Origin: a virus
Taxonomy: Duplodnaviria > Heunggongvirae > Uroviricota > Caudoviricetes
Length of the DNA stretch: 64,000 nucleotides
IMG/VR virus record: IMGVR_UViG_3300020156_000001
Location: 1 to 64,000 of that record
Direction: 5' to 3' (one strand)
Part shown: positions 786 through 37,700 of the stretch, in pieces
Position numbering within the stretch: the stretch's first letter is position 1
How the letters are laid out: the number at the start of each line of letters is the position of its first letter
The notes under the pieces: generated by a model
Seen by the model: the letters and a program-made list of their open reading frames with translations, nothing else
Told to the model about the DNA's origin: nothing
The model's database searches: none
Position numbers and translations under genes: made by a program

Positions 786-813
786 TTTATGACCTCACTG
801 TTAGAATTTCAGT

Positions 814-821
814 TATTTATA
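814..821 (-). promoter_or_regulatory. T4-like late promoter TATAAATA
   Basis: Exact T4 late consensus upstream of a structural gene; TAAATA cores also at 8681, 8984, 15716, 20998 (-) and 34663 (+). Confidence 0.7.
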
Positions 822-826
822 AGAGG

Positions 827-1765
827 TCAAACGACCTGAATAATAATAGTAATTGATGTTGGCGTTGTACCGGTATTGGTAATCTTCCAATACGTATTTG
901 GGCTAGTTGTGTCGTCCATGTTGATCAAGTTGACAAAACGCTCGCCATAATAACGCATACCAGCCAATGTAAATGAGCCATCATCAACCAAGTGGCTTGC
1001 TGTGGCAACAAAGCGATATGGGTTTGTATCGGTGCGTGTTTTTACGCTGTGGCATTCCAAGATGGATGGTGCGGAAACCTTAGCTTCAACCAACACGCAT
1101 TTGCCACCGGTTTCAAAAACAAAATCAATCGATTTGCCCACACTTAGCTGGGCTGTGGTATATGTGAGTGTGCGGATCTTGGCTGTATTGGTTGGACCAC
1201 CACCGCTAACCGAACGACCAATCTCACCCGTGTAAAGCCAGCCCTCAATCCAAATGCCGTTTTGGATAGCAACCGGAGGAGTACCATTTGGGAAGAACAA
1301 CACGCCTGTGGAATAATCAAATTCCCATTCATAGTTTTCAGCAACCGGAGACAGCTTTACAGTACCGGCGTTGCCTGGCTGACCCGCATAAACGCTGATC
1401 GTGTAGGAACGATCGATAACTGGTGGAACCCAATTACGGATACGATTTTCTTCAATCACCCCAGTATTTGGATTGGTCATAGCGTGAAACGCTGTGAGAT
1501 CCACAGTTAGATCCTTGACCAATTGAACCGCTGTTTCGCCCTTACGTGGGGAAATAACGCTGGCCCAAACCTCAGTTCCCGTTACAGTTGCAGTAACTGG
1601 TGCTGGGCTTGGAATAACATCGGAATCAGTCCAGAAGTTTTGCTGGAATGTTGGTGGGTTGCTAAGCAGGGCTTCGTTATGAGCGGCCTTGTCTTGACTT
1701 GTTGGGGTTACACCACGGTAACGCTTCCAAAGCAAGTCTAGCTTATCATTGTTATCATAGCTCAT
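827..1765 (-). CDS. Virion structural protein (N-terminal domain shared with 1755..3908)
   Basis: 312 aa; K(L/I)DLLWK and W-x-FDY-x2-GVL-x-FP motifs shared with neighbour; late operon. Confidence 0.8.
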   Translation of the reverse strand: MSYDNNDKLDLLWKRYRGVTPTSQDKAAHNEALLSNPPTFQQNFWTDSDVIPSPAPVTATVTGTEVWASVISPRKGETAVQLVKDLTVDLTAFHAMTNPNTGVIEENRIRNWVPPVIDRSYTISVYAGQPGNAGTVKLSPVAENYEWEFDYSTGVLFFPNGTPPVAIQNGIWIEGWLYTGEIGRSVSGGGPTNTAKIRTLTYTTAQLSVGKSIDFVFETGGKCVLVEAKVSAPSILECHSVKTRTDTNPYRFVATASHLVDDGSFTLAGMRYYGERFVNLINMDDTTSPNTYWKITNTGTTPTSITIIIQVV

Positions 1766-3908: not shown

Positions 3909-3918
3909 TTGCTATCCC

Positions 3919-5973: not shown

Positions 5974-5988
5974 GACTATTCCTTTAAA

Positions 5989-8649
5989 TTAGAATACAAT
6001 AACGCACTTTGCAATACGCATTGTAGTCGAACGAATCGAACTTGTGCTGATACCTTGAACCTTAATATTCAAAGGGTTAGCCGTATCATAGGACATCCAG
6101 TTAGCTGTTGTTGTACCAGGAGCACTAACCCAGTTAGTGCCACCAGCAGCGCCAAACTTACCCATCATAGAAACCATTTTAGGAAAAGCAGGAGATGGCA
6201 TTGCAACAACAAATTCACCAGAACCCATAGAAACAACAGACCAACCAGTTGGAAGATCACGGATTGCAGAAACAGTTGTTGTGTCGGAAAGTTCAATTTC
6301 AAACATAACCGTGCTGCTAGAACCAGTGCCACCGGAGGAACCACCACCTGGGATAGTTACTGTGGCAACACCAGCTGTGTTTGTTACAGTAACACCAGCG
6401 CCAACAAAGTTGATTGCTGATGGGTTTGCAACTGTAGCTGCGCCTTCATCCTGAACAGCAACCGGAGCTACATGCAGACCGTTTACGCTTTCAGTAATAC
6501 GGTTGTTTGCAGTTACAGTGTCACGACGAACCGCAGCACTGATTGCTGTACCAGTTAGGGTCAAGTCAACGCTGTTGGTGTCAGTTACTGTGTATGTGGA
6601 ACCACCACCGCTAACAGTACCAAGAACAAACTTGGATGTTGCGTTGTCCCAAACAAGAGCCTTACCATTATCGCCAGCCGCTGGAGTACCAACGTTTACG
6701 TCTGTAAGCTGCTTTAGCTGAGTCCAAGAAACCTGACCAGCATCAAACGAGCCGCCCTTATCGCGTGTTAGGATCAAGTGACCATTGTTGTTGATCGTAG
6801 CTGCGGAAATACCTTCACCTGGTTCACCATCGTCGCCATCAGCACCACGAGCGCCTGGGGCGCCGTCATTACCATTAGTACCTGGAGGACCCTGAAGACC
6901 CTGATTGCCTTGATCGCCCTTTGGACCCTTAAAGCTACCCATGTCAACGAAATCTTCAGCAGCTTCCGAGAATACCCAAAGGTTACCATCGATAAAGTAA
7001 CCATCGCCAACGTTTGGATCAACTAGTGCGTCTAGTTCAGCAACATTGTTAAGCGGACCGATGATTGTGATACCTGCTTCACCTGCCGGACCAATATCAC
7101 CCTTGTCACCCTTTGGACCACGAACGTTACCCGCATCGATTGTCGTGTTGTTCGACATGTTGAGGATGAGGTTGTCACCAGTTACAGTAGCAGCGGTTAC
7201 GTGGCTACCTTCAGGGCCTTGAGGACCAGCAGCGCCGGTACCAGCAGACCATAGACCATCTTCACGAACTTCGATGATGTTGCCTTCTTCTTGCGAAATC
7301 TTAATGTTTAGCTCGAAAGGCTTGGAATTAGCAAATTCTGGACGAATTGCAGTTAGTGGAGTACCATCAGCAGTAGCACGAAGGCCATAACGGATGAATG
7401 ATTCTTCTAGACCATCACCTTCAACAATAATCGAGTCCGTTTCCGCAAATACTGGGGAAGGAACAATAACTTCGTCATGTGGGTGTTTTGCTACGCTTAG
7501 GAAACGCTGCTTTGCAGTCCAAGGATGGCTAGCAGGACTACCGTTGTAACCCTTAATCCACTTTTCAATAGTGACATTTAGCTTATTATTGGCTGTGCCA
7601 TCACCAACAAGGTACCAAGGAGTTTCAACAGTAGGAACTTGAACAGCACCGCCAGAGCTTGCTGGAACAAAGAGACCATTTGCACGCTCAACCAACGAGT
7701 TACCAGCGTCTGGGCTGATAACAACTGCACCAGAGATATCATCGCCAGCTAGAGTCAAGTTTAGCGAAGGAGTGTCGCTTACTGTATAGGTTACACCACC
7801 GGCACCACCGCCAGTCGCATAAAGACCATCGTCACGAATTTCAATGGTGTTACCAGCGTCTTCGGAAATCTTTACATCAAACTTGAAAGCTTCTGCATTA
7901 GTGATGCCAGGCCCCGAAGTAGACAAACCGGCAATCACTGGATCAATACCAGTACCCGAAACGCTAATAGTTGCGGTTTCATCAACAATTGTTGATGGAA
8001 TTATCATGTGACCAGGATTGTCAATAGTACCTGGAGTCTCAAACCAAATGTTAAATGCACGGGCTCCGGTTTCTTCTGTTATATTATATGGATTCACATT
8101 AATCCATGTCATCAAAGGATCACCAGCGGTGCCATCACCTGTTAGGAAATGTGGTCGGCCAGTGCCGTTAGTAACTATCGCATTCATGCCCCCGGTCGGA
8201 GCATCAACAAATTCGATCTTTGTACCGTCTGCGGAAACCTTCAAGAACTTGTCGCTCTGGCTTGCTGGGAAAGCAGCCGTAGAGTTCAAGTACTCATCCA
8301 AACGTGGGAGTTCAGGAATTTCAGGTCCACCAATGATGATCGTATCGGAAGTACCACGAATCGTTAGACCGTTTTCAACTGCCAAACCTCTAAAGTAGAA
8401 AGTGTTGGATTCACGACGGCGATACAAACCCTGGCCAGAACCCAAGTTACCCATCTGAATCGAATTGAGTAGATCTTGATTGCTATCTGGGGTTTCGGCG
8501 CCGGCTGCGATTGTACCAACAGCGGTTTGGTTTGAGCCGCGAATACGACGCTTGGTTACATTATTAGGATCCGTTGTACCGCCTTCTTGATCCTGTGGGA
8601 ACAATTCGCCAGTACCATACTGGATACCATAATTATCAATTGTGCTCAT
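5989..8649 (-). CDS. Collagen-like tail fibre protein
   Basis: 886 aa; G-X-Y runs (GPKGDQGNQGLQGPPGTNGNDGAPGARGADGDDGEPGEG), repeated ISxDAGNxIxxRxDGL motif; AGGAG SD and TAAATA upstream. Confidence 0.85.
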   Translation of the reverse strand: MSTIDNYGIQYGTGELFPQDQEGGTTDPNNVTKRRIRGSNQTAVGTIAAGAETPDSNQDLLNSIQMGNLGSGQGLYRRRESNTFYFRGLAVENGLTIRGTSDTIIIGGPEIPELPRLDEYLNSTAAFPASQSDKFLKVSADGTKIEFVDAPTGGMNAIVTNGTGRPHFLTGDGTAGDPLMTWINVNPYNITEETGARAFNIWFETPGTIDNPGHMIIPSTIVDETATISVSGTGIDPVIAGLSTSGPGITNAEAFKFDVKISEDAGNTIEIRDDGLYATGGGAGGVTYTVSDTPSLNLTLAGDDISGAVVISPDAGNSLVERANGLFVPASSGGAVQVPTVETPWYLVGDGTANNKLNVTIEKWIKGYNGSPASHPWTAKQRFLSVAKHPHDEVIVPSPVFAETDSIIVEGDGLEESFIRYGLRATADGTPLTAIRPEFANSKPFELNIKISQEEGNIIEVREDGLWSAGTGAAGPQGPEGSHVTAATVTGDNLILNMSNNTTIDAGNVRGPKGDKGDIGPAGEAGITIIGPLNNVAELDALVDPNVGDGYFIDGNLWVFSEAAEDFVDMGSFKGPKGDQGNQGLQGPPGTNGNDGAPGARGADGDDGEPGEGISAATINNNGHLILTRDKGGSFDAGQVSWTQLKQLTDVNVGTPAAGDNGKALVWDNATSKFVLGTVSGGGSTYTVTDTNSVDLTLTGTAISAAVRRDTVTANNRITESVNGLHVAPVAVQDEGAATVANPSAINFVGAGVTVTNTAGVATVTIPGGGSSGGTGSSSTVMFEIELSDTTTVSAIRDLPTGWSVVSMGSGEFVVAMPSPAFPKMVSMMGKFGAAGGTNWVSAPGTTTANWMSYDTANPLNIKVQGISTSSIRSTTMRIAKCVIVF

Positions 8650-8679
8650 CTTGGCGCTCCTGAAGTGACTTGCTTTGTG

Positions 8680-8952
8680 TTATTTATTCTTTGGAGCGGT
8701 AGGCGCAGCGAATGCAGGATTACTCACTGAGTGAATAGATCCGCAACTACTGCAATAGAAATCGATTTTTCTGAAAACCATGCCTTCGGTGTTGAACTCA
8801 ATCTTTGCATCGCATCGAGTGCATTCAAAGGACCAAGGCCCCAAATGTAATTGATTATGGACTACGTCAGGCTGGTCGAGCTTTAATTTAAGCCGATTGT
8901 TGCGACGAGACTGAGCAGCCAAAGGAAACGGTATCACTGCCATAACACGCAC
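8680..8952 (-). CDS. Small zinc-ribbon protein
   Basis: 90 aa, CTRC and CSSC pairs; GTG start below a TAAATA element. Confidence 0.65.
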   Translation of the reverse strand: MRVMAVIPFPLAAQSRRNNRLKLKLDQPDVVHNQLHLGPWSFECTRCDAKIEFNTEGMVFRKIDFYCSSCGSIHSVSNPAFAAPTAPKNK

Positions 8953-9043
8953 CTAAAAACCTCTTATAACAACTGCTCGCTAATATTTATCAGCGAGCTA
9001 GTTGATATTTCTAATGCTATAAGTGGGTGCGATTTAGACTATA

Positions 9044-11809: not shown

Positions 11810-11815
11810 CAGCTA

Positions 11816-14800: not shown

Positions 14801-15694
14801 AAGGCTTGTATGGGTTTGAACAACCCAGTCCACAGCATCCAAAAGATTTTCTGTGGTGGATGGTGCAAAATTGGAAAATGCACGAACACTGATAACAGTG
14901 GCACCCGGTGCAACACCAACAGTTGAGCCCGCTGCGATACTTGCGACGTGCGTGCCGTGATCGTCTGTTATCACGTTTACACCATCATATCCAACTTCAG
15001 TGGATGGTTCACCATAAAGAGGATCGCCAACACTACGAAAAGCATCAAAGCGATATGTGGGGCTTACACGGCCACGAAGCTCATCGTGATTGCTTTGCAC
15101 ACCAGTATCAATAACAAATACACGAGTACCAGCGCCGTTACGGGTAAAGCGGATGTTCTCGAAAAAGTTGATTGTGCGGTGTGCAATTCGTTCGATACCC
15201 CAGTTGTAACGCTGTAGGTCCTGAACACGAGTAAACTCGTTGATAGGTTGGTTATTTTCTGTAACGTTGGTGACATTGGAAAAATCAGTGGAGCTTGTTA
15301 AAGTTGCCATAAGCGTGCGGTATTGATCCGCGCTCAATGTCGTAAACAAGCTTTGAGGAAGCAACTCATAAGAGTTTACTGTGATATCCAGACGTTTTAG
15401 TAGCGCCAAACGTACTGGACCCAATGCAGCGGGCGAATCCAAGTGGATTTCGTATTGCTTGGTGGGGATGGTGTTTTCGTGCAGGTAAACGCCTTGGGTT
15501 TGTTCAACCATTGCGATACCATGCTGAGTTTTAAGCCAGTCCGCTTGTTCCGTAGTTAGCGAAACATTCATTAGCAGAGGAAAGCTTTTCCACGTGCGAA
15601 TGTCAGTAAAAGAGGATTGTTCCAACAGTGTACGAACTGCTGGTACATTCTCTATTGTATCTACGATGATATGGTAACGCTGACGATTCTGCAT
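11816..15694 (-). CDS. Subtilisin-like (S8) protease fused to Ig-like repeats and baseplate-like C-terminus
   Basis: 1292 aa; triad motifs VIDTG, HGTHVAS, GTSMAAP; oxyanion SAGN; then WITPPAG/LPPGL Ig-like repeats and GLPLWMRS..GF.PA..YVKPG. Confidence 0.9.
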   Translation of the reverse strand: MQNRQRYHIIVDTIENVPAVRTLLEQSSFTDIRTWKSFPLLMNVSLTTEQADWLKTQHGIAMVEQTQGVYLHENTIPTKQYEIHLDSPAALGPVRLALLKRLDITVNSYELLPQSLFTTLSADQYRTLMATLTSSTDFSNVTNVTENNQPINEFTRVQDLQRYNWGIERIAHRTINFFENIRFTRNGAGTRVFVIDTGVQSNHDELRGRVSPTYRFDAFRSVGDPLYGEPSTEVGYDGVNVITDDHGTHVASIAAGSTVGVAPGATVISVRAFSNFAPSTTENLLDAVDWVVQTHTSLGGPSVANLSLAINGKSEVGHIIVASMINVGITVVVSAGNNGTDAYLESPASAGTKRELVEVDGQYQLQTVFSPLKPIVVGASVFPRSAASSNDSIWKGSNWGDVVDVFAPGVDIYGASLQVFDEQVDLARTGSYALKTGTSMAAPVVAGIALMQLEAKPQLSHAEVRKLIIEQATPNPFAPTEVQHVRVDAPVFVDINGTQTQAKLANIYVHSPNRLAYAWFTNTRIEWADQEYQFDIDEQTRELFELRASSSDYYRDSERVDFSYVGLDVPPAYTTLGTIVFYKTLEYVTSVGNIMEQADVANFRVTAPAITGDVSGLYAILATDGRMTSARRFRLNTRNVPQPPVWITPPAGELTVVPVEKGYQFNETVVRFEAVQVDGLPVTYTITPQKALPPGLQFTLGSQTVNGVTTYFGYLNGRVGNIPYSTEPRRYEFLIRATASNGMIAERLFVLSCKYKNELHTFRPSWLSSLFDYGSGIKRLGKANIGNSYYKHIEVINTDGDALDYRVDFVPSIADAPGVYNGVLPVGLGLDDKGDIEGIIDPSAQLGQYFFRVIVTDIEDNQIFQDFLVDVINQEENLPDSDQIIWITPAGNIGNIYETFASHLGVEAKSPEGLPISYMLNPSGGILPDGMELDQETGYITGIAPFVDNTIEYTFIVRATVGARYVDREFSLTIVSQYSGASVLNFKANMMGYDRLEVFNWTDSKQIIPRNDIFRPTDPNFGTLEQPHMYVLSGTSVVKPNQIMDYLKDYHKRMYLVFGNLTWSPAHDMNGTHVYDVVYMRVHDPLIKVGGFLDNLSEETLTLKQSKPYDNTLWDEQSQLSRYFPNSVANARDDLISQVDGRQGLGLANQEGLPLWMRSRKQPSRPEIVGFTPAILVAYVKPGKGQSTVNLLTQAGFNRTFRGREFILDRYYISDIVTRTTTFFDSVDGEPTTIFDEPDLQNHPLPPDQDPNDVDGLIQQTLFDVKTVETGKYYKFEDDAPILADRLANPYR

Positions 15695-15728
15695 GATAAA
15701 CTCCCGCTTACGGGATATTTATCAGTGC

Positions 15729-16070
15729 TTAGTGGTGAACCTTTTTATTGAGATTGAGGCCAATTTTCCACAGAACCCCAACCTTTTCCCTTACTTTGCG
15801 AAGGGCTTGTTCAGTGCGACGAACCCTGACTATGGGCGCAATGCTTGCAAAGGTAACCGTATCAATCAAATACAAACGGATACCCAAATCCGGTGCAGGT
15901 GTGTATGTGTTATCATCGCGCATTCCGCTACGAACTTGCACGGAAAACGGTGTCCTAGGTATGCTGGTCTGCCAACAGATTTCCCCATTGCCACGCTGAA
16001 ACTCCTGAAACCTCATGGTGTGGACCATGAGGTTCCGAAAAGCTTTGATGTCGTTGGAAAAACTCTTCAA
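15729..16070 (-). CDS. Hypothetical protein
   Basis: 113 aa, GAGG SD, in minus-strand run. Confidence 0.6.
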   Translation of the reverse strand: MKSFSNDIKAFRNLMVHTMRFQEFQRGNGEICWQTSIPRTPFSVQVRSGMRDDNTYTPAPDLGIRLYLIDTVTFASIAPIVRVRRTEQALRKVREKVGVLWKIGLNLNKKVHH

Positions 16071-16077
16071 TTAGCCC

Positions 16078-16449
16078 TCATTCGTCGTCTTTGTCGAACT
16101 TTCCGCTGAGCTTAGCAATAAACATCAGCTTTTTCATGTGCGCGGTAAAGCCTGGGTAGATCTTTTCCACATCAACGAGGATGTCATCCTCGACCTTGAC
16201 CGACACGGGCTGATATCCCTTGTTGAGTTTTTCACGCATCTTCTTCTTGACTTGGTACTCATTCTCAAAGAACGAGTGGTAGTCGTTGAACTGCTTGAAA
16301 GTCATCTTGATCAACTTCTTCTCGCCACGCGGGCCCCAGAAGTTGTAGACCTTGTCGCCGATTGTAAACCAACCCCAGATCTTGTCGTTGTTCTTGGCCG
16401 GATTGTGGCACCAGCCGAAAAACCTTACTTGAATTTCACCATCAGCCAT
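16078..16449 (-). CDS. WGR-like domain protein
   Basis: DKIWG...FWGPRG...EKLNKGY pattern; start moved to ATG 16449 after AGGAGATCGAA and a TTGACA promoter. Confidence 0.65.
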   Translation of the reverse strand: MADGEIQVRFFGWCHNPAKNNDKIWGWFTIGDKVYNFWGPRGEKKLIKMTFKQFNDYHSFFENEYQVKKKMREKLNKGYQPVSVKVEDDILVDVEKIYPGFTAHMKKLMFIAKLSGKFDKDDE

Positions 16450-16508
16450 TTCGATCTCCTTTTTAAACTGGTGCCCCAAATGTAGCACCAGTTCCAGTTG
16501 TGTCAACC

Positions 16509-21543: not shown

Positions 21544-21577
21544 GATAGCTCCTATTCAATAGAAGCCTAACATAGTT

Positions 21578-21781: not shown

Positions 21782-21810
21782 GTCCGCTTTATTGCATAAA
21801 AGGCAGACGT

Positions 21811-22359
21811 TTACAAGCTTCGATTAGTATAAGTTCCCGCTAGTAATAAATGAGTAAGATCGTACTTGCGAACTCGCTCAAGGATATCGTAGCGCACGCG
21901 GTCAAGAACTGAATGTTTGGCCAGCCAATCCCAAAGCGACTCTTTTAGCTGATCCTCGGTAATATCGCCTCCGCAGAACTTGGTCAAAAACAAGTGGGGG
22001 ATAACAATCCCATGGGGATTCATATCAATGAGACCACCAAGCTTGAGTGTGAGAAACTCGGTATACCAACCCGAGAACTCACATCCTCTGGCACCAGTAA
22101 TATCCAGCCGCGCATCTGGGCCGTTTAGAATTTTGAGAACATCCAACAGCCGTACCTCAAGAGTTTTGCCAGGCTCCAAAGTCAAGCGTGCAAGCATGGC
22201 CGAGGACTTGATCGCTTTGAAAACCCTGTACAGGGATTCTCTTGTTGGACTGTGGCAGCCGTTGGCACGAAGCTTTTCATGAACCCCATCCAGGCTCATT
22301 GTAGTTGAATTGAACTGAGCTTCTGCAAGCAAGAACATAGCAACACCTTTTTTGCTCAT
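21811..22359 (-). CDS. Hypothetical protein
   Basis: 182 aa, below TTGACT promoter at 22381. Confidence 0.65.
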   Translation of the reverse strand: MSKKGVAMFLLAEAQFNSTTMSLDGVHEKLRANGCHSPTRESLYRVFKAIKSSAMLARLTLEPGKTLEVRLLDVLKILNGPDARLDITGARGCEFSGWYTEFLTLKLGGLIDMNPHGIVIPHLFLTKFCGGDITEDQLKESLWDWLAKHSVLDRVRYDILERVRKYDLTHLLLAGTYTNRSL

Positions 22360-22412
22360 ATAATTTTAGAAAACCAGGAAGTCAACCACGCATTTTACAG
22401 TTTCCAAGCACC

Positions 22413-22420
22413 TATAAATA
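22413..22420 (+). promoter_or_regulatory. T4-like late promoter TATAAATA
   Basis: Exact consensus ~40 bp before the giant FG-GAP gene, back to back with a minus-strand TTGACT promoter. Confidence 0.75.
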
Positions 22421-22459
22421 GATGAACATTTGAAAATCCCCGCATGGAGAACTCAACTC

Positions 22460-28400: not shown

Positions 28401-31400
28401 TCGGAAGTCTCGAGCTTGTGGTAAGTGGGGTAAAACGCGGCGAAACTCTAGCATTTGGAACTAACGCTTGGAATCGCGTGATCATCCAGCGCAGTGGCAA
28501 CACAATGAGCTTCCACGTTAATGGAACTCAGGTAGCGTCTTGGGAAATCACTGGTCCATCGGATGTTCCTTATGGTCTTGGTGCTGGTATTATCCTTGGT
28601 AACACAGCGGGTAATGCTGATTCTGAAAAGCGTTACGAATACATTCGTGTCAACACCGAAGCTCTAATTCCAGCGGAAGCGTTCGATGACAACATGGGTC
28701 GTCGTCCATCGACAATCATGTATGCGAACTTCCGTTCCAACTACTTGGACATCGTTGAAGCATATGCGGCTACACCTGAAACACGTAACATTTCCAACGT
28801 ACCAACATTCGCACTAATCCCGGGTAAGACTTCCTCTGCAATTGCAGGTCAAGTTCACTTCTACAAGCGCGACAATGGTGTTTGGTCTTACGATCAATCG
28901 GTTCAGCCTTCGGGTCCAGTAACCGCAGGAGATCGTTTTGGTCACTCTGTGGATCTTGTTGAAGATTTCATGGTTGTTGGTTCTCCAATCCACAACTTGG
29001 ATCAAAGCAACGTTCGCCCACTTAGCAACTCTGGTGCAGTTTGGTTCTTCCAGCGCGTTGATTCCTCTTGGGTTCAACAGCAAAAGTTGTCGATGATCGG
29101 CGACGAAATGGTAAACGGCGAAGAAACTGGCGCAACAGTTGAATCCGCTGGAAACGTTATTGCTGTGGCTGCAACTCGTCATCCATACGATGATCAGGGT
29201 GAGAACTTTAGAGAATATGCAGGTGCTGTTTATGTATGGCGCTTTGAAAACGATACTTGGGTAATTGAACAAAAGATCGTTGCAAGCAACCGTCAAACAC
29301 GAGCCAACTTTGGTTACTCCATTGCAATAACCGACACGCTTATGGTTATTGGTGCACCATCAAATGATGATGCAACCAAGCCAGGCCAAGCATTTGTTTA
29401 TCGTAAGGAAGCCGGTGATACGGGTCTTTATCCTTGGAAATCCGAAGGCGAGCTAATTGCCCCAGGTACAAACGACCGTAAGCCAGGCGACAAGTTTGGT
29501 TATGCCGTTGCAATCAACAGCGATAACGAAGTTATGGTTGGTGCTCCACTGCACGACTTTAATGCTGCTGGCGCAAATGAACTTGCTGATGCTGGTGCGA
29601 TCTTTGTATTCAAGAAGGATACTTCTTGGACTCTATCCCAGAAGCTAACTGCAAATGCAATGCACAAGGGTGTTGCTGGTACAGTTGGTCGCGCTGCTGG
29701 CGAACAATTTGGTTCATCGATCACAACGTTTGGTAATGATCTAATTGTGGGTCAGCCATTCCGTGCAAATGATGCGCGTGGTCAAATGCCAGTTAGCCAA
29801 GCTGGTGGTGCCATTGTATTCACACGCGATAACGCAGATGCACTTTGGGAACAGACACAGATCATCGTTCCACAAATGCGCAACTCCGTGGCAAACGAAT
29901 ACGTTGGTAATGCTGTTTCCGGTTGGGGCGATATCTTCGTAGCTGGTTCTCCAATGAACAACTACGATGGTGACAACGACAATTACATGCAAAATGCTGG
30001 TGCCGTATATGTATGGCAAAAGCAGGGTTCGGAATGGAAGAACATTCAGAAGATCGCAGCGGTCAGCGCAAATGGTATCAATCGTCAGTCCAACGCGTTC
30101 TTTGGTGCATCGCTTATCCTTCATGAGGATATGCTAATTGTTGGTGCTCCTCAAACAACACAACAATTTACAGTTCCATCAACAACCAATGAGCAAGTTG
30201 GTGCGGTATTCATCTACAAGCTGGTAGATGGTAAATTCGAGTTCCAATACTCATTCCGTCCAGATGCTTCGGCTTCAAATTACAAGAACTACCGCTTTGG
30301 TTATTCTTTGGATTATGATGGTTCCACACTTATTGTTGGTGCCAACAATGCGGCTCAAACAAACACTGCACTTGATGGTTTTGGTCGCGCTTACTTCTTC
30401 GAACTAAATGAGGAAGGTGTATTCGAACAAACTGGTATGGTTGTTCCAAAGACAGCCCCAGCGCAAAGCATGAGCTATGGTACTTCGGTAAGCGTGCATG
30501 GTGATCTTGCTGTGGCAAGCTCCTCTACAGCTCTTAGCGGTGGCCATCCTGGCCGTGTTGTTATCATGCAGCGCATCGAAGGCACATGGGCCGAAGTTGA
30601 CATGGTTTTGGCTCAGGATCAAATGGCCGACAGTGGCTCGCAGTTTGGTTTTACTATTGAGTTTAGTGCGGACAATTCCAAAATGTTCGTTGGTGCACCA
30701 AACACCAGCTATGATCGCTTGAATCGTTTGGTATCAAATGGTGGTGCAGTATTCTTCTTTGAGAACGATAACGGCACTTGGGTATTCCGTCAGCGCATTA
30801 CACCGGTTGGTCAAAACTACCATCATGCGAATTCACAGTTTGGTTATTCGATCAGCTATAACAACGAACTAGGTTTGTTGTTCGTTGGCGCCCCAGGCAA
30901 TACCTACAACGGCATCGGCAATAGTATTGCGGCTCGTTATGGTGCAGTATTCGAGTTCAACCAGGACGAAGATGGCTTCTTCTATACAAAGAGCCGTATC
31001 CTTCCTGATCCCGCTTATGGTATGAACGGCTCCAACGACTTTGGCTACAAGATCCATTCGGAAGCTAATATGTTGTTGGCAAGTGCGCCAGGTAACACTT
31101 ATGGCAACCTCTCAACTGATCCGGCTGCTACTGCAATGGGTGGCATTCTCGCATTCCGTTTGGTGGATGAGAATTGGCTATTCATCCGCAAGATTATCCC
31201 AGAAGGTCGTAACACTGCGGTTGCAAACCGTCGCTTTGGTGAAGTGTTCAAGTACAAGGACAGCTTGCTTGCTGTGGGCGTTCCAAACAACCGTCACGAC
31301 GAATACGGCACAGACTTGTTCGATGGCTATGGCTCGGTATTCGTTTACAAGGTAGAAAGCCTAGACGCGCTTACAGTGGAATTTGTAGGTGGTAAGTTTA

Positions 31401-34400
31401 ACGCTCCTGCAAACGCAACAATCGGCTTTAACGAAGACGGTCAGTTTGATGCTGTTGAACTTCAATATGGTGGTGATGCTTATCGTGACACGCCAACAAT
31501 TGAATTCTCCGCTGCTGGCTTTGCTGCTCACGCATTTATGAATCCTGTGGGTCTTGCAAATCCAAGCTTGACTCGTTTGGGTTCGGGTACACCAACTGTA
31601 ACAGTGGTAAACGATCCACTTGACACAACTGGTGCAGGTGCTGAACTGGGTCTTACACGCGCTGGCTCTACAATTGGCAGCGTAAGTGTAACGGCTCCAG
31701 GTTCCGGCTACACCGACGTTCCAGCAGTTGAAGCAAATGGTGGTACCAATGTTAGCTTGCGTGCGGTTCTAAAGCCAACAAGCATCAGCGAAGTTACAAT
31801 TGGCAATCGTGGCGCTGGCTATACGGACTTCCCAACAGTTCAAATTGAAGCTCCGCAAACTGCTGGTCAACCCGCACAGGCACACATTGTAATGGAAGTT
31901 GATAACATGATTATCAACCAAACTACAAAGTCCTATCCTGGCGAAACGTTCAACGTTGATTTCAACGGCAACATGCTAACTCGCTTTAAAACGGCAACAG
32001 TTGATGCAGAAAGCAACATGCTAACTGTGGAAGTTGTAATCGCTGGCGAGTACAATAAGACAACAGTTCAAACTGGTCGTATTGCACATCGTGTTGTTGA
32101 AAATCGCGTTTACGGTCACATCTTGGACTTTGCTCCAGGTGTTGATGAAGACTATGGTCTGATCACAGAATCTGTTTACGAAGCTGATGATTATGGTTCC
32201 ATCACCGACACTACGATTGTTGTAAGCGAAGACTACAATATTGCAACAGACGCTCCAAGCTATGGCCCAATTACTGAGGAAGTTGTTGAGTATATGAGCT
32301 TTGGCCCGATTACAGCTACACCAGCAACGGTTAGCGTAACTGGTCGTTTGAAGACATTTACGCTGGACAACGCAGGCACAGGCTTTACTCGTCGTCCAAC
32401 AGTTGCGCTAGTTGGCACAAGCAGTGTTCCTGCTCAACTAACAGCGGTATTGACGCCAACTGAAGTTGCAAGTGTTGAAGTTGTTAATGGCGGTTACAAT
32501 GTTCCAAACGGCGTAAGCGTGGAAATCACTGGCGGTAATGGTACAGGCGCAACAGCGGTTCCAAATATCCAACTCGGTGTTATCAACGGCTTGTATGTGA
32601 TCAATGCAGGTTCAGGCTATACTCGTACACCAAAGGTTGAATTCTCGATTGATGGTTTTGCAGGTAAAGTTGAACTACAGCCAACAACCGTTGCAAGTGT
32701 TGTAACAACTGAAGTAGATGAAACCCTAAATGTTGAAGGTCGTCTCACACAGATCAAGCGTTTGTCCAATCCAATCAATGCTCGCCAAATCAACTCTCGC
32801 TTTGGTACGGCTATTGCTGGTTCTGGATCAACAGTTGCTATCTCTGGCTTGCCAGCAGTTGCAGACAACATTCCAACAAGCGGCGGTAACGTGGAAATCT
32901 TCGAAGTTCAAGAACGTGAAGATCGTGTTGTCAAGGTAGAAATGGATGGTTGGCTCAATGCAAGCTCAGCAATGGCTGGTCTTTCCGACTTTACGCTTAG
33001 CATGTGGTATCGTACATCCGACCGCACCAAGGTCAAAAACAACGGTACAATGTTCGCAGCAACAGATCCTACGCGTCCTGGTTTGTTCGAATCAATCCGT
33101 AGCACAACTGGCGGTTCGTTTACAGTACCAGCAAACGTAAACAAGATCCGCTTCCAGGGTTGGGGTGCAGGTTCTAAGAAGGCAGCTCGTCCAGACACAG
33201 GCGGCTTTGCTGGTGGTATCCTAGACGTAACTCCGGGCGAAAGCTTTGGTTGGTCTATGGACACAACAACTGGTCGTACTCGTCTAACTCGTGGTGGTGT
33301 TGAAGTCGCGAATATTGGCTCGGGTATTAACGATGCTCCAAACGGTTTTGCTGCGGATCCATTGGTTTCCAACGGCAACGCTGGCGGATGGAACCTGGCT
33401 TCCTACAATCCAAACTTTGGTGCCATCTATGTTCAAGGCCATTACCTCTCGGGTGTTGCCAACATGTATGATGCAGCAAACTTTGCAAGTGGTTACACTG
33501 GTACGGGCGTCTACAACATGACTGGTCACGTTTCCACAAAGTATGGTATTGATAACCGCATGATTCGTTTCTATTACGATTCTGGTACTTCAAGAAATGG
33601 TTCTTCCGACACTATTTCATCTGTGCCGCATATTAAGAGTGTTTACGTGAGCAAGGAATTCTCGCGTTTTGTGGATACCTTCAAAAACAATGGAACCGCT
33701 GATATCACGTTCAACGTTGTTTCCTATGTAGCTATTGGTGAAACCTATGGTTATACCACTGGCACATTCAACACCGCGCGTATGGAATTGGGAACTCAGG
33801 ATGGCACAACAAAGGTTGTAATATTGAACGGTGATGGTCAAGCTTTGCTTCCAGTGGATATTTCCAATATGTCGGTTCGCTCTCCAATGCGTGCGATGAC
33901 TTGGACAATCACATTGAAGCCAGGCGAAACAAAGTCCATTGCAACATTCTACGTTTGTGATCAACCAATCAACGGTGTGAGAACCGCTGCTAGTGCGGCT
34001 GCAACTGCTTTGCTTCCAAACCTAGAAGCTCTCTTCTATGGCTTGACCAATGCTGAAATTGCAACGATTGCAAACTTCAAGTTTGCTCGTGAAAATGAAT
34101 ATGCAACAACAGCGGATCCAATGTTCAGCAAGGTATACAATGGTGCAACTGGTTCTCCATCAAGCAGCCCAATGTATGATGGTGTTGCAGGTACTCTAAA
34201 CAACCCAGGCCTCGTAACAGTAAGCCCGGTAGTGGATACTCCAGCTAACCGTCAAAGCTTGCAGATCACCAACAATGGTAAGATCAACGTAAGCACGACA
34301 AGAGGCGAAGTTTCCTACTATACAAGCCCAATGGAAGATGGTTGGCACAACATCGTTTATACGGTTTCCGCTGAAAAGGCTTCCGTATACATCGACGGCA

Positions 34401-34633
34401 ACTATCAGTTTACAGTTGATGTTGACTCGTTGGGTGCTTCGGATATTGTTGCTTTGGGTGCCAAGTTTGACCAGGAATCAAATCTTGCGGAAAACGATAC
34501 ATTTGCAGGTTACCTAGCGGATGTGGCAGTTTGGAATACTTCGCTTACTGAGGAAGAAGTTCAAATGCTTCTCACAGCAAAGGCCGATACTATCCAGCCC
34601 GGCAATATCCGAGCTTACTGGTTGAAGAATTAA
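22460..34633 (+). CDS. Giant FG-GAP beta-propeller virion/adhesin protein with glycine-rich, LamG and GSGYT-repeat inserts
   Basis: Dozens of FG.SV...VGAP...AGAVYVF repeats; start moved to ATG 22460 (GGAGA SD; TATAAATA 22413-22420). Confidence 0.9.
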   Translation: MGVKATDFGSILIEKHVGFRGELRFPETFLPTKQVGAGTFGRNAGDNFGYSVSIDGMLAAVGVPAQDYNEDGELSKADAGAVFVYRRNRDSWEFAYKISAPEADREEADNFGYSVSLKGNVLVVGSPKHAVDAAQANPIIGGGAAFVYNIVADAFELEAKLVPAVRDEDDNFGSVVSAFKDIVYVGSHAHGRNELEALDAPAAGAVWAFARNSETASWSLTKKIVAGGNDRNPNDQFGSAVSAHKNILAVGVPNYDYISKGMDLKTNAGAVYVFEWNTDHWVYRSLIVAADRAEGDQFGSAISVFDKRIAIGAPGKNKVYVYAQDILGNYVLASTAAPTMPVLADDLEQPTSATLVDGAKFGQALSLNADTLVVGAPNQRGLTVVSIDPLPEDAEEGTLKTWTGSETPNVGYVYVYAVDADSKLTQINKFTSVDRLEAGHALDNGNFGSSVSVGTDIIVVGEPNANVGSAGTDYKTNAGTAHIYVRTNGTFAHSKTVEGFYVDRNDQDAFATAFAQNDRFMVFTAPGQDYDTNNENYVSNAGAAYVWENVAGTWTYRQKLAAADRFAEAAFGSNVEILGETLFIQAARPNSSGAVHVFALENGAFVEKQRIVHADALAGDMFGSVMLARDSRLFIASTTVAANGTNNHGAVFAYNLVDGLYEFASKIVPTTLQSASRFGSSLSLNNNLLAVGAPGHSTDSGNGNPLGEAGAVFLFTPVEAGWEQVAKIAGPGTDRNANDYMGFAVARNANMIAVGIPGANYDAGVSVYKDSAGKVQLFSRDGMGWKLEASLDSPNRSVMGSFGHSVAMSDTRIVVGAPGEPEALAGTYGTGLAYVWEKVAGEWAVVATLSNDEMPAYDRRFGFAVAIDGDRVIVGEPNSRTTSENSTVVAAAGAAWIFEKKNGSWNKVSKLTAQALAGRTANANFGFSVDIRGTMAVVGAPYDTTNDVGAVTLANAGSTYVFRRAESSEGVVSWNPEKKLAGWAQDRNTDDRFGSAIAAYGNWVVVGATGHDFDLNRENFVDNAGALFVYEWVNRALVYRQKLVAHNNADRVADTGFGSVVAINSFTIVASAPNLKSATSQYRGKVWTWKLENGAWVKDRTFVCANSSDRDSTNTSSTTRFGSSLALSDTVLAIGSPASGFGATSTHVDRAGAVEVYRFVENAWAFEKTLVSALRKAGDEFGTTIAVRDNLIVVGGIAPQSSTPSLGADTLNYGGGAAWVFQQAGGNWNLIQKLSRGDEAANVNQFGTAVRISGDTMVVGAPGHVYDVNGRDFKVGAGAAYVFKMTVDGWKYNTTLHAPDRAENQLFGTDVVVKDDLIWVGAPGALNGGVVSGAVYGFRRATTGVETRRTRRVARFVGTGANQTFTVPAGIEEVTAYIWGAGGAVNTSVSDGGNGGFVRVKIPVTPGEELTLAVGTSPAANTGAGGGRSEILRGASTLAVAGGGGGTPGFAHGGVWVGTAGSAGANGSSGTEAVLAGLAGTSNAGGLSRTSTGYLSGNAGLFKMGGNGPTYEGATYYTGGWPNGGSSTVGANSSFAIGGGGDGWYGGSAGAVDLTASYLTAPAGGGSSYIAPGLTGYMGSVKTEYDDAFAYLSVLDNTDALASRPAVVNRDGMVVVEWYETYESNDWTFEQRLNMTTKPINANLEFGKTLAFDGATLVVGSPGDIHSPSGVNVGFAAGSAAVYEFNGFEWQESAVLFQFGLNSYANVNAMFTHSISVHEDYIIIGAPNHSYDEAGAEAMNGAGIAYLYRKVAGAWTNVQRLGPLGSQRNSNDLIGHSILSQDDWVFVGIPGQEYDAENANKVTNAGAVNVWKWEGSTLTFKQKLTAPFAERKLNKQFGWVLDYVDGQLYVSSPGSLVGGTENLETAGSLNVFGLEGDTWVPVQTINPPFSAPGSTLFGYDFAVSQDALAITAPGSAMDAISLANLTWLAYRPQGDAKYITLQMQEWSVELSCFRPDSSSATLLSTETPTGPGSLSLNAAGFGSLELVVSGVKRGETLAFGTNAWNRVIIQRSGNTMSFHVNGTQVASWEITGPSDVPYGLGAGIILGNTAGNADSEKRYEYIRVNTEALIPAEAFDDNMGRRPSTIMYANFRSNYLDIVEAYAATPETRNISNVPTFALIPGKTSSAIAGQVHFYKRDNGVWSYDQSVQPSGPVTAGDRFGHSVDLVEDFMVVGSPIHNLDQSNVRPLSNSGAVWFFQRVDSSWVQQQKLSMIGDEMVNGEETGATVESAGNVIAVAATRHPYDDQGENFREYAGAVYVWRFENDTWVIEQKIVASNRQTRANFGYSIAITDTLMVIGAPSNDDATKPGQAFVYRKEAGDTGLYPWKSEGELIAPGTNDRKPGDKFGYAVAINSDNEVMVGAPLHDFNAAGANELADAGAIFVFKKDTSWTLSQKLTANAMHKGVAGTVGRAAGEQFGSSITTFGNDLIVGQPFRANDARGQMPVSQAGGAIVFTRDNADALWEQTQIIVPQMRNSVANEYVGNAVSGWGDIFVAGSPMNNYDGDNDNYMQNAGAVYVWQKQGSEWKNIQKIAAVSANGINRQSNAFFGASLILHEDMLIVGAPQTTQQFTVPSTTNEQVGAVFIYKLVDGKFEFQYSFRPDASASNYKNYRFGYSLDYDGSTLIVGANNAAQTNTALDGFGRAYFFELNEEGVFEQTGMVVPKTAPAQSMSYGTSVSVHGDLAVASSSTALSGGHPGRVVIMQRIEGTWAEVDMVLAQDQMADSGSQFGFTIEFSADNSKMFVGAPNTSYDRLNRLVSNGGAVFFFENDNGTWVFRQRITPVGQNYHHANSQFGYSISYNNELGLLFVGAPGNTYNGIGNSIAARYGAVFEFNQDEDGFFYTKSRILPDPAYGMNGSNDFGYKIHSEANMLLASAPGNTYGNLSTDPAATAMGGILAFRLVDENWLFIRKIIPEGRNTAVANRRFGEVFKYKDSLLAVGVPNNRHDEYGTDLFDGYGSVFVYKVESLDALTVEFVGGKFNAPANATIGFNEDGQFDAVELQYGGDAYRDTPTIEFSAAGFAAHAFMNPVGLANPSLTRLGSGTPTVTVVNDPLDTTGAGAELGLTRAGSTIGSVSVTAPGSGYTDVPAVEANGGTNVSLRAVLKPTSISEVTIGNRGAGYTDFPTVQIEAPQTAGQPAQAHIVMEVDNMIINQTTKSYPGETFNVDFNGNMLTRFKTATVDAESNMLTVEVVIAGEYNKTTVQTGRIAHRVVENRVYGHILDFAPGVDEDYGLITESVYEADDYGSITDTTIVVSEDYNIATDAPSYGPITEEVVEYMSFGPITATPATVSVTGRLKTFTLDNAGTGFTRRPTVALVGTSSVPAQLTAVLTPTEVASVEVVNGGYNVPNGVSVEITGGNGTGATAVPNIQLGVINGLYVINAGSGYTRTPKVEFSIDGFAGKVELQPTTVASVVTTEVDETLNVEGRLTQIKRLSNPINARQINSRFGTAIAGSGSTVAISGLPAVADNIPTSGGNVEIFEVQEREDRVVKVEMDGWLNASSAMAGLSDFTLSMWYRTSDRTKVKNNGTMFAATDPTRPGLFESIRSTTGGSFTVPANVNKIRFQGWGAGSKKAARPDTGGFAGGILDVTPGESFGWSMDTTTGRTRLTRGGVEVANIGSGINDAPNGFAADPLVSNGNAGGWNLASYNPNFGAIYVQGHYLSGVANMYDAANFASGYTGTGVYNMTGHVSTKYGIDNRMIRFYYDSGTSRNGSSDTISSVPHIKSVYVSKEFSRFVDTFKNNGTADITFNVVSYVAIGETYGYTTGTFNTARMELGTQDGTTKVVILNGDGQALLPVDISNMSVRSPMRAMTWTITLKPGETKSIATFYVCDQPINGVRTAASAAATALLPNLEALFYGLTNAEIATIANFKFARENEYATTADPMFSKVYNGATGSPSSSPMYDGVAGTLNNPGLVTVSPVVDTPANRQSLQITNNGKINVSTTRGEVSYYTSPMEDGWHNIVYTVSAEKASVYIDGNYQFTVDVDSLGASDIVALGAKFDQESNLAENDTFAGYLADVAVWNTSLTEEEVQMLLTAKADTIQPGNIRAYWLKN

Positions 34634-34704
34634 ACACAATAGGAATAGGTCTCCAGGGCGCATAAATACTCGTGAATCAAAATCGAGTTGCCCTGGAGAC
34701 AACA

Positions 34705-37700
34705 ATGACTTCTATCCCCGACAATTCAGTCAATGGTCATGATCTGATCATCAACGGAAACTCTAAAATGTCTGAAGGCATTCAAGAGAAGTCCGTTGTC
34801 CATAAAGCGTCCATTAAGCCAACAACGGTTGGATTTCTAACAAGTGCGGACAACTTTGGTTCGATCATGGACATTTTTGAGGATGTTCTTGTTGTTGGTT
34901 CTCCCACAGTAAATCAGCTTTCAGGTGCAGTTTGGGTGTTTGAGAAAACTTCCAAGCAGCGTATCCGCAAAAGCCAAAAGGTTTCTCGCGAGCGCCAAAC
35001 ATTTACCCACACCGGCTCAAAGCAAACATGGACCGCACCGGAAAATGTCAAAAACGTTACAATCCAGTTGGTTGGTGCCGGCGGTGGTGGTAACGCTTTG
35101 GGAACACACCTCGGTGGTAACGGCGCATACGTAAAGGCTGTGATTGCAGTTGATCCAGGCAAGACATATGACATTATTGTTGGTCAAGGTGGTGTAGCCG
35201 CTGGTACAACTCGCCCATTCGGTGGCGGTGGTCGTGTTCCTGAAAACAGCATCGGTGGATCCGGTGGTGGTCGCTCTGCTATTGCTGATCCTGTATTCGG
35301 CGACATGCTTACCGCAGGTGGTGGTGGTGGTGCGGGTAAAGATGGCCCAGGTGGTTTTGCCGGTGTTAAAGCAGGCGATGGCGTTGCGCTAAAAGCTGAT
35401 GGTTCCGCTATTGTTCCCGCAGTAAACGCAATCGGCGCTAATGAATACCTCACAGGTTTCAACGCTTCGGCTCTCACAACAAATTACTTGGTTGATGGTC
35501 TTTGGACTCTCACCAACAACATCATGGATCCAGCCACAGGTGTTGAAAAGCCAAACTACTTGAACACAAAGTACCAAGGTGAAGACGCTAAAGCGGCACT
35601 ATCCCTGCTTGGAAAGACCGTAAACGAAAGCGGCGCCGGCGGTGGTGGTTTCGCAGGTGGTGCTGCTGGTCCTGAGTCCTACGGCGAACGTTTTAGAACA
35701 ACAGTGGGCAATATTTTCCCAACCGGTGGTTCTGGTTCGGGTGGCTCGTCCATGGCGGATCCAACTCTCGCATTCCCATTCCGTAACACCGAAGATATGA
35801 TTCGCGATGTTGTGGTATTCGACGGTAATGCTCGTCAGCTTCCAGTTGAATTTGATGCCTTTGGTCATGGTGGCGATGATACCACACCTGGTCAGGATGG
35901 TACCATTGTTATTGAATGGGACGTATACGCTGAAGGTGATGATGAAACCACTGAAGACCTTCAAGACTGGAAGGAAACACACTTCTACACGTTCAATCCA
36001 GTTGATGCCGGTGGTATCAACTATAGCTGCCGCGTTGGTGCAGCGGTTGCCACAAATGGCGAATATATCGCTATTGGTTCACCGTATGACTTAGCAAATT
36101 CAGATGGTAACCTCTTTGCGCCACCACAAATCGGTGGTAACGGAACCCTTACAATCCTCAAGAAGGAAAATGGTGCTTGGGTTCGCACTCAACGTATTAT
36201 CGCAACTGGCACAAACGGCCGCACTGACAACCTGTTTGGTGCTTCGGTAAAGTTTATCGGCGGCAAACTATTTGTAGGCGCTCCAACAAGCGACACAGAT
36301 TCAACTGGCGCAAATGCGGTTACCGATGCTGGTGAAGTGTTTGTATTTGAACTAGTTAACGATGCTTGGGTACAAACCGGCCGCATTAGCGCGACTGGTA
36401 CTAACAGCCGTATCGCAAGCGATTCGTTTGGTTACAAGCTGGCTGGCTTTGGCGACACGCTTATGGTTGCCAGCAAGAACAGCTATGACGCACTTGGTGC
36501 AAACCTAGTTGCTGGCGCTGGTTCAGTATTCGTTTATAACGTTGATACTCTAGCACAAGTCCAACGTATTGCGGGTCCTCGCATTGCAAATGCAGGCTTT
36601 GGTTCTTCGATGAGCGTAAAAGCGGGCACGATGGTTATTGGTGCCGAAGGTACTGCTGAAACTTACGTTTACAAGCTTGAAAACACAACTTGGGTACAGG
36701 AAACAAAGAAGTCTCATGCGGCTTCGCACTTGATCTCTTACTGCCCAATGCTTGTGACAGGTAATACCGTAGCTCAATCGGTAAATGGTTTGAACTTCAC
36801 CTACGAGAGTCACACAATGAGTGAAGGTATCTCCGGTGGTACTCTTGGTGATATCTATCAGTTCTACTTTGGTAATACCCAGCGCGGCCGTAGCCGTAGC
36901 AACAACAACATGGGCTTTACTCAAAACTATGGCCGTCGTGGTGGTTTCCGCGCAAGTGTTCCAGCGATTCTATCTCGCACCGAATTTACACTTTCCAAGT
37001 GGCTTTACATTTTGCAGCCGCAAACATTCACCGGCTTTGAAAACGCTGGTACTCCAATGCCATTGTTCCGTCGTGGTTCGCTTTGGGGTGTATTCCTGGA
37101 ACGTAGCTCAGGTGAAGCAAATGGTGGTAACCTTTACTTGCAGGTAGCCAACAGCGGCAATCCAAAGCGTTTCCACTTTGGTAAGCTGCCAAAGGATCGC
37201 TGGATTCACATGGCGATTACTCTAAAGGGTACCAAGCTTCGTTTGTTCGTAAATGGTGAACTCCGCAACACCTATGATATTGCAAGTGTTTCGCTTGCAG
37301 ATGATCCTTCGATTCCAATCTCCTGGGGTTACAACCCAGCAATTGATGCTCTTGAAGCTCCGCTTTATGGTATGGGAGATTTTGCGCTTTACGATATTGC
37401 TCGTTATGATCAGTCCTACACGCCATCGGATACTTCATATTTTGAAACCCACTGGAATGAAATTCCAAAGGATCCATCCACATTTGGCCGTGGTAAGGCT
37501 GCATTTGTTGTTGACGAAAACACAATTCTAGAAGGTCTACCAACGTCCTATTCGGATGAAGCAGTTCATCACAACCCACGCACAAGACACCAAAACTCCA
37601 CAGTTCATCACGAAGACATTATGATGAACTCGGGTAAGGTTGAGATCACACAATTTGACGGTGAAGAATGGACAACTGAAAAGTCTCTTCCAATCATCAC

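Follow-up and report, generated by a model that had tools for sequence, protein, structure and literature searches.

Phage T4 possesses a small set of genes whose ribosome-binding site (RBS) is sequestered in a hairpin that has a late promoter nested in it. The cases named in the parts of PMC3014915 and PMC2988022 that deal with them are e, soc, 49, I-TevI, I-TevII, I-TevIII, and segB of T4 and mobE of phage Aeh1. At gene e, the hairpin is established to block initiation, by about 100-fold, according to section 29 of PMC3014915, and section 12 of PMC2988022, as far as that section goes, places all of the known RBS hairpins with nested promoters at late genes.

Here, we analyze 64,000 nucleotides of viral DNA (hereafter the window), positions 1 to 64,000 of the IMG/VR virus record IMGVR_UViG_3300020156_000001, together with the full record (G000) and other phage genomes. 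Roughly a quarter to a third of the predicted promoters, late and sigma70-type, overlap an inverted repeat in which one arm contains the Shine–Dalgarno (SD) sequence. On this sequence evidence, we think it probable that the genes behind these arrangements, called locks below, are translated mainly from their own promoters, because read-through RNA would hide the SD, whereas a transcript initiated at the nested promoter would not contain the blocking arm.

The notion is as follows. The promoter and the anti-SD arm overlap, which is seen directly in the DNA. A polymerase coming from an upstream promoter on the same strand would copy both arms, and the resulting helix would bury the SD or the AUG. 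By analogy with T4 gene e, loading of the 30S subunit would be blocked. Initiation at the nested promoter would omit the blocking arm and leave the leader nearly open, and each locked gene would follow its own promoter in timing and in dose. Cleavage by RNase III or polarity through Rho may contribute. The sequence provides the motifs, the inverted repeats in excess of shuffles and swaps, the confinement of these repeats to co-directional settings, a G·U bias, and gene-wise conservation; we infer where transcripts begin (11 nt from the beginning of TAAATA and 34 nt from that of TTGAC), the read-through, and the block of translation.

Two Promoter Classes in a Giant T4-Type Phage

G000 is a single contig of 480,347 bp with 46.7% GC, classed as complete and carrying direct terminal repeats. 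It is a giant (jumbo) T4-type soil phage, and its kin are Sinorhizobium phage Phosso and Agrobacterium phage Atu_ph07. Phosso, the best cultured relative, is syntenic with it (60% identity on query; 404 reciprocal best hits, median 60%), and Atu_ph07 gives 216 hits (median 45%). The host is presumably an alphaproteobacterium. Tail and virion genes occupy the left part of the window.

Gene calls, 589 for the motif count and 619 in later scans, were made with a home-made caller. Among the 589, TAAATA lies 12–70 nt before the start of 76 genes, a 15.8-fold enrichment that makes it the top-ranked hexamer. TTGACA before gene starts defines a second promoter class (70 genes, 6.4-fold). Promoters of this class read TTGAC-N16/17-TAnnnT, often with an extended −10, and the predicted start, 34 nt from TTGAC, is A-rich. 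They are presumably early, as their consensus and the small genes behind them suggest. For the late class, the predicted start position rests on the T4 spacing together with an A-rich peak 10–12 nt from the start of the TAAATA box. A gp55-type late sigma factor is encoded at G000 342869-343726 (phrog_234, E 2.6e-21; phrog_12791, E 8e-90); sigma factors are treated in PMC7824862.

Locks Exceed Chance in Both Classes

The lock score, or gain, is the energy needed to open positions −15 to +3 in the read-through RNA minus that needed in the RNA truncated to begin at the predicted start. Among the 77 TAAATA genes scored, 22 exceed all 20 box-fixed shuffles (3.7 expected) and 17 exceed all 20 swaps of upstream regions among late genes. 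For the 118 sigma70-type promoters, the corresponding figures are 34 above all shuffles (5.6 expected) and 21 above all within-class swaps. Gains of at least 10 kcal/mol occur at 17 late and 17 sigma70-type promoters of G000. In a sample of 100 from the 230 operon-internal genes, 3 exceed all shuffles, with 4.8 expected. Intergenic genes with neither motif do so in 14 of 100 cases (sampled from 193), and the locks there probably reflect variant promoters. The relatives behave similarly: in the shuffle test, Phosso yields 17/72 late and 31/106 sigma70-type locks, and Atu_ph07 yields 22/106 and 36/141.

The architecture agrees with the proposed switch. The pairing peak lies upstream of the predicted start; at sigma70-type promoters it spans −29 to −15, within the −35/−10 spacer, and the blocking arm lies there or across the −10. 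Mean opening energies are 4.1 and 3.3 kcal/mol for the own-promoter leaders versus 9.4 and 9.0 kcal/mol. Lock counts are stable when the predicted start is moved by 3 nt in either direction or when more coding sequence is added. Stronger late locks, with gains of 7–14 kcal/mol, precede orthologues of the Phosso endolysin, tail tube, tail sheath, portal, minor tail, and S8 peptidase genes.

A sequence-only reading of the window had described six late promoters inside hairpins, likened them to the T4 cases, and proposed a general lock that leaves only late-promoter transcripts translated. Its T4-like logic, with a blocking arm upstream of the start and the SD in the other arm, holds for the class as judged by shuffles, swaps, context, and conservation; silencing itself would follow from the predicted folds. 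Its expectation that TAAATA-preceded genes carry hairpins in excess of shuffled leaders is borne out by the 22 of 77. Generality is not, given that 18 of the 77 late genes gain at least 8 kcal/mol, 27 gain less than 2 kcal/mol, and the locked share resembles that of T4. The restriction to late-promoter transcripts proves too narrow, because sigma70-type promoters are locked at an equal rate (34/118).

Two other measures were tried and dropped. Comparison of late genes with all other intergenic genes (18/77 versus 51/322 at gains of at least 8 kcal/mol, p 0.13; 16/72 versus 47/325 in Phosso) was set aside because the comparison group contains the sigma70 locks. A duplex-only score, blind to arms that overlap TAAATA, gave 15/78, missed the lock at 15694 described below, and was abandoned. 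One G000 gene, 476025-476432 (minus strand), has a strong SD-burying hairpin located entirely downstream of its TAAATA (19.1 versus 19.2 kcal/mol). In these folds its predicted late RNA would remain locked, and it may need another promoter, a factor, or processing.

Upstream Gene Direction and Mismatches Point to RNA

For the context and mismatch tests, G000, Phosso, and Atu_ph07 were pooled. Strong locks are found at 129 of 459 promoters behind co-directional genes versus 7 of 161 behind divergent ones. Specifically, gains of at least 8 kcal/mol occur at 43/157 co-directional versus 6/98 divergent late promoters (p 1.5e-5) and at 86/302 versus 1/63 sigma70-type promoters (p 1.8e-7). A strand-symmetric score that counts only Watson–Crick pairs gives the same picture: co-directional promoters are locked in 44/157 late cases (6.7 expected) and 80/302 sigma70 cases (10.5 expected), and divergent promoters in 9/161 (9.4 expected). 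Late promoters directly behind a terminator-like hairpin are locked in none of 17 cases, versus 43 of 140 others (p 0.004). The gene layout (43/157 versus 6/98; 0/17 behind terminators) fits co-directional transcription from upstream, the transcripts themselves being predicted.

The internal mismatches of the repeats distinguish the strands. Read on the sense strand, they comprise 51 G·T and 21 A·C, versus 132 and 128 in the shuffles (p 0.003). G·T thus exceeds A·C, as expected for RNA helices. Two earlier comparisons, of sense versus antisense stability of selected hairpins (72/86 and 33/49) and of native versus crossed arms in pairs selected on both sides (23/30, 17/20, and 12/14), were discarded and replaced because they were biased by selection.

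Conservation across Relatives

Across 59 late orthologue pairs of G000 and Phosso, lock gain correlates with rho 0.77. When pairs were selected on the partner only, the native upstream region outdid random upstream regions in 26/27 late, 22/27 sigma70-type, and 13/18 Atu_ph07 late cases. The locks are hence conserved, yet bulk covariation lacks support, because native regions beat random ones but do not significantly beat the partner's upstream region. Several genes are locked by unrelated arms in different genomes, and one sigma70-type gene has different arms in four.

Related sequences are scarce for locus comparisons, and a 435-kb metagenome contig was used only around its match. In the tail-tube leader, aligned from six genomes, 83% of cells are paired and 5 of 19 pairs are changed on both sides. 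Of 500 shuffles, 2 match its covariation score; the tool attaches a caveat on related sequences. Covariation in related phages, which the sequence-only reading proposed as a check, appears in single cases such as this leader, whereas co-evolution of the class lacks support.

T4 and Other Genomes

Applied to T4, the same 20-shuffle pipeline places 8 of 36 late promoters above all shuffles (1.7 expected). I-TevI, 49, I-TevII, e, and segB rank at the top and soc is weaker, so the method recovers the textbook cases. Since the late share in G000 is close to that of T4 (22/77 versus 8/36), the late half alone is ordinary. In a faster pipeline with 10 shuffles, T4 early-type promoters are also locked, in 10 of 33 cases, and nine gains reach 8 kcal/mol or more, with 0.8 expected. 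regB ranks first, followed by genes that include nrdC.8, modB, motB.2, e.8, and mrh.2; for the T4 NC_000866 starts 62740, 136278, 53885, 13130, 123032, and 8161, predicted gains are 14–18 kcal/mol, with regB the strongest.

Other genomes were scanned with this 10-shuffle pipeline (expectation n/11). Over the whole analysis, the genome parts covered were 5,000-469,473 of Phosso, the first 318 kb of XacN1, the first 400 of 440 kb of SCTP-2, the first 111.5 kb of T5, the first 205 kb of phiCbK, and 400 kb of E. coli. Late locks occur in RB49 (7/28), KVP40 (10/44), and XacN1 (15/65); they are not significant in 121Q (9/74) or in SCTP-2 (13/90, sampled from 123). XacN1 has both classes, its sigma70-type locks numbering 17/86 (p 0.002). 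T5 shows a weak sigma70 excess (7/30, p 0.016). In KVP40, the sigma70 rank test is not significant (7/45), yet eight strong gains were found versus 1.6 expected. The sigma70 class is not significant in RB49 (2/44), 121Q (6/71), or SCTP-2 (5/78), nor in the low-power E. coli control (3/20). phiCbK offered only four motif hits and was left unscored.

Weighing the Explanations

Several results weigh against translation mainly from the gene's own promoter. Sigma70-type locks are not rarer behind terminators (14/39 versus 72/263, p 0.34), and at a stricter cut-off the G·U bias is weaker for sigma70-type locks (18 versus 10) than for late ones (13 versus 1). Locks also stand at 6 of the 98 late promoters in divergent settings, in part as face-to-face pairs in which each SD is the other's anti-SD. 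Lock strength is uncorrelated in 52 sigma70-type orthologue pairs (rho 0.10) and, for late genes, between G000 and Atu_ph07 (rho 0.13, 36 pairs). Native regions do not significantly outperform the partner's upstream region (15/27 late, 18/27 sigma70-type, 9/18 Atu_ph07 late; p 0.11-0.58). In the tail-tube leader, the count of doubly changed pairs is by itself not significant (81/500 shuffles). Finally, all gene calls derive from the home-made caller.

Close or overlapping face-to-face TAAATA pairs between divergent genes lie in G000 at 116819/116834, 282098/282101, 333072/333105, 352261/352308, and 464379/464403. There, the SD of each strand serves as the anti-SD of the other.

An RNA-level role need not be exclusion of ribosomes. 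The hairpins could act mainly as decay or termination signals on read-through RNA, through RNase III-type cleavage or Rho polarity, with ribosome exclusion secondary. Many stems run to 15–28 bp with internal loops, some at RNase III-compatible lengths, and the context and G·U results would suit any function in RNA; moreover, T4 delayed-early RNA needs translation to avoid Rho, as stated in the portion of PMC2988021 that concerns it. We nevertheless consider this explanation unlikely: the 3′ arm is centered on the SD or the start in the folds described here, a decoy window in the coding region gains in only 3 of 459 cases (its greater distance makes this a weak control), and the gene e precedent (PMC3014915 section 29) is a block of initiation. 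Less probable still is a DNA-level function, in which cruciforms or single-strand hairpins present or hide the promoter. It would accommodate the predominance of Watson–Crick pairs (901 versus 95 G·U in late and 1530 versus 169 in sigma70-type locks) and the frequent placement of TAAATA or the −10 box in the loop. However, it is hard to square with the sense-strand excess of G·T over A·C (51 versus 21), with a box that lies now in the loop and now in the 5′ arm in no fixed geometry, and with the many promoters, indeed most, that have no repeat. It also leaves the dependence on upstream gene direction unexplained.

The repeats might instead be a by-product of pyrimidine-rich spacers next to purine-rich SDs, spread by duplication of a cassette or by replication errors that perfect palindromes. 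Many sigma70-type promoters are indeed built as one stereotyped cassette whose spacer contains TTCCT, the strength of their locks is not conserved gene by gene, and the sigma70 form is absent from RB49, 121Q, and SCTP-2. Yet shuffles that keep composition and swaps that keep the motifs are both beaten, divergent promoters show no excess (9/161 versus 9.4 expected), and the mismatch spectrum is asymmetric between strands, all of which makes a by-product improbable in our view. The sequence-only reading proposed a lock that is general, confined to late promoters, and serves to silence early read-through over late genes; the scan already contradicts this version as stated, and we give it almost no credence. 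The stronger cases do include endolysin, tail tube and sheath, portal, minor tail, and protease genes. Nonetheless, 27 of 77 late genes gain less than 2 kcal/mol, sigma70-type promoters are locked equally often, and late locks show no significant preference for an upstream sigma70-type over an upstream late promoter (18/55 versus 19/80, p 0.33). Translation gated by the gene's own promoter, in both classes, remains our preferred explanation.

Individual Locks in the Window

Per-site figures below give opening energies of the read-through versus the late-start RNA, and the null consists of 60 shuffles of the upstream part. The 17 strings quoted in the sequence-only reading are all present at the coordinates it gave. 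Of its six nested hairpins, two (34705 and 15694) exceed chance individually, three are partial, and the one at 22460 is unsupported. The pattern of the class as a whole lies far beyond chance. An Rfam search at the six sites gave no match. The 77 late genes counted do not include those at 785 and 8943, which were entered manually.

The strongest late lock, at 34645..34700 (plus strand), has its 5′ arm at 34645-34672 and its 3′ arm, with the SD, at 34684-34700. TAAATA at 34663-34668, with a predicted start at about 34674, precedes gene 34705-44220 (plus strand, 3171 aa). Opening requires 20.5 versus 3.4 kcal/mol, none of 60 shuffles scores as high, and the fold has z −4.9. The Phosso orthologue retains the lock (19.3 versus 5.5 kcal/mol), and, read by eye, three changes in the 5′ arm yield G·U pairs. 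The other clear case, at 15691..15728 (minus strand), pairs a 5′ arm at 15711-15728, which includes TAAATA 15716-15721, with a 3′ arm at 15691-15706 that covers the SD and the ATG (17.4 versus 3.4 kcal/mol, 0/60 shuffles). The gene behind it, 11816-15694 (minus strand, 1292 aa), matches a protease PHROG, and its Phosso orthologue is annotated as an S8 peptidase. Orthologues are locked by different arms, at 14.8 in Phosso, 18.3 in L178, and 9.9 kcal/mol in Atu_ph07. Inside the end of the protease gene, at 11877-11882 (minus strand) and 73 nt before the next gene, lies another TAAATA, found in Phosso too, that is likely an internal late promoter.

The remaining sites are less clear. A moderate lock at 780..836 (minus strand; TAAATA 814-819) precedes the tail-sheath-like gene 3-785, with 8.8 versus 4.7 kcal/mol, 14/60 shuffles, and z −3.1 for the hairpin alone. 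A weak one at 8655..8698 (minus strand), with arms at 8687-8698 and 8655-8664 around TAAATA 8681-8686, precedes the tail-fibre-like gene 5989-8649 (9.0 versus 4.3 kcal/mol, 10/60 shuffles, whole-region folding z +0.5); its CGCTCC/GGAGCG arms are identical in Phosso and L178. The long hairpin at 8933..9033 (minus strand), with TAAATA 8984-8989 at its apex, precedes the 87-aa gene 8680-8943. It is strong (z −4.1), yet the short leader is equally closed (10.4 versus 8.4 kcal/mol, or 7.1 versus 9.3 with more coding sequence), so no clear switch is seen in this genome; the Phosso orthologue switches clearly (18.4 versus 5.0-7.7 kcal/mol). This gene (minus strand) has two CxxC motifs and is conserved, though unannotated, in Phosso. 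Around its start, at 8909-8958, 49 of 50 nt are identical between the window phage and Phosso, and in both the predicted late 5′ end of its transcript pairs with a stretch inside the gene. The predicted pairing suggests an extra RNA-level control of this gene.

At 22415..22420 (plus strand), TAAATA precedes the 4057-aa virion gene 22460-34633, which is divergent from its upstream neighbor, and no lock is supported: 6.5 versus 5.5 kcal/mol, 18/60 shuffles, and the arms proposed earlier are not the minimum-energy fold (z +0.5). Its orthologues in Phosso and L178 have no lock either. This gene, which has virion-protein matches, stands in tandem with 34705-44220; the two giants (plus strand, 4057 and 3171 aa) have a PHROG 7388 domain in common.

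A sigma70-type lock not listed in the sequence-only reading lies at 49594..49647 (minus strand), before gene 48915-49589 (minus strand). TTGACA is at 49642-49647 and the −10 at about 49619-49624; the 5′ arm (49620-49637) occupies the spacer, and the 3′ arm (49594-49613) contains the SD. It scores 11.7 versus 5.2 kcal/mol with 2/60 shuffles as high, and it is the sole one of nine sigma70-type promoters in the window that reaches this level. A stereotyped promoter–RBS cassette, consisting of TTGAC, a TTCCT-rich spacer, an extended −10, and an A-rich leader, recurs in dozens of copies over the early-type region of G000, about 48-170 kb. It resembles the promoter early stem-loop (PeSL) cassette and often follows directly on the stop codon of the preceding gene or on a terminator-like hairpin. 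In G000, GGAGATC occurs in the last 20 nt of the leader at 42/118 sigma70-type versus 5/77 late promoters, as before the window starts 16449, 57443, 59161, and 61737; among sigma70-type leaders, Phosso has it in 31/106 and Atu_ph07 in 1/141. It could be a shut-off tag like the RegB site of T4, or it could reflect ancestry of the cassette. No Pfam match to RegB or RegA was found in the G000 genome. Finally, a GOLLD RNA lies at 59262-59694 of the window (minus strand), a full-length match to Rfam RF02032 at 184.7 bits.

Implications

The putative purpose of the locks is insulation of timing and dosage in long same-strand arrays, on the late side for lysis and virion genes and on the other side for small early-type genes. 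A broader proposal, about which we are slightly more doubtful than confident, is a genome-wide code of own-promoter-only translation in large T4-type phages. Promoter spacers would have a second function as anti-SD arms, at dozens of genes of both the early and the late type and at positions that read-through can reach. The output of each gene would then depend on its own promoter class and not on the summed activity of upstream promoters. Rho might end untranslated read-through, so that the locks act as conditional terminators, and T4 regB, modB, and motB.2 would be overlooked examples. If the locks act as proposed, transcript counts would mislead about the timing of phage protein production, since the read-through RNA that covers many genes would yield no protein. 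The locks would also account for the way in which genomes with at least 100 tandem same-strand promoters escape cumulative downstream overexpression. A T4 curiosity of a few late genes would become a design rule, and synthetic biology would gain a compact (about 50 nt) promoter–RBS insulator.

Comparison with Known Systems

In T4-type phages, the PeSL is a stem beside the promoter that is not known to pair with the SD. The cassettes described here resemble it in that they are repeated, sigma70-like, placed before small genes, and often preceded by a terminator-like stem. Unlike in the PeSL, the stem here is predicted to pair with the SD, and RB49 has no sigma70 lock (2/44).

IS10 is reportedly protected from external promoters, in work ascribed to Davis, Simons and Kleckner in 1985. 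As is predicted for the loci described here, its translation signals are sequestered in RNA that originates beyond the element, and they are free when transcription begins at its own host-type promoter. The hallmark of the IS10 type, a host-type promoter nested in an RBS-sequestering structure, is present in the predicted folds, with the peak of the 5′ arm in the spacer. Unlike IS10, which has one transposase per element, G000 has dozens of unrelated phage genes with unrelated arms. No transposase is found among the annotated orthologues, and the downstream genes are diverse phage genes. External-promoter protection of IS10 and IS3 is mentioned in the pertinent part of PMC13181058.

A literature search by title and start of abstract, outside which most older T4 papers fall, found no description of such locks, either for early promoters of phages or for the group to which this phage belongs. 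A 1986 note is said to have reported stem-loops before ipIII, ipII, denV, and orf61.9. The main texts of PMC11242549 and PMC6102473 mention neither promoter nor hairpin.

The closest relatives are the T4 locks. As in T4, a gp55-type promoter, with its late sigma factor encoded in the genome, lies in or beside the 5′ arm, the SD or AUG lies in the 3′ arm, and the short transcript would lose the blocking arm; in the predicted folds, the SD or start pairs with an arm that crosses the promoter or lies upstream of it. Like gene e, the endolysin orthologue has a lock, with a gain of 12.1 kcal/mol, and the late share is similar (22/77 here, 8/36 in T4). Unlike in T4, the late box is TAAATA and not TATAAATA, the cases are more numerous in absolute terms (17 late gains reach 10 kcal/mol or more), and structural genes are included. 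The late half comprises further members of the known mechanism, at a T4-like frequency, and is not general. Restriction to late genes does not hold, with sigma70-type locks at 34/118 here and early-type locks at 10/33 in T4, and in G000 17 equally strong locks stand at sigma70-type promoters, unlike the known T4 cases. The sigma70 class works like the T4 lock family and falls outside its printed definition. Combined with the results on context, terminators, and G·U pairs, it points to promoter-gated translation in both classes, beyond the late-only form known from T4.

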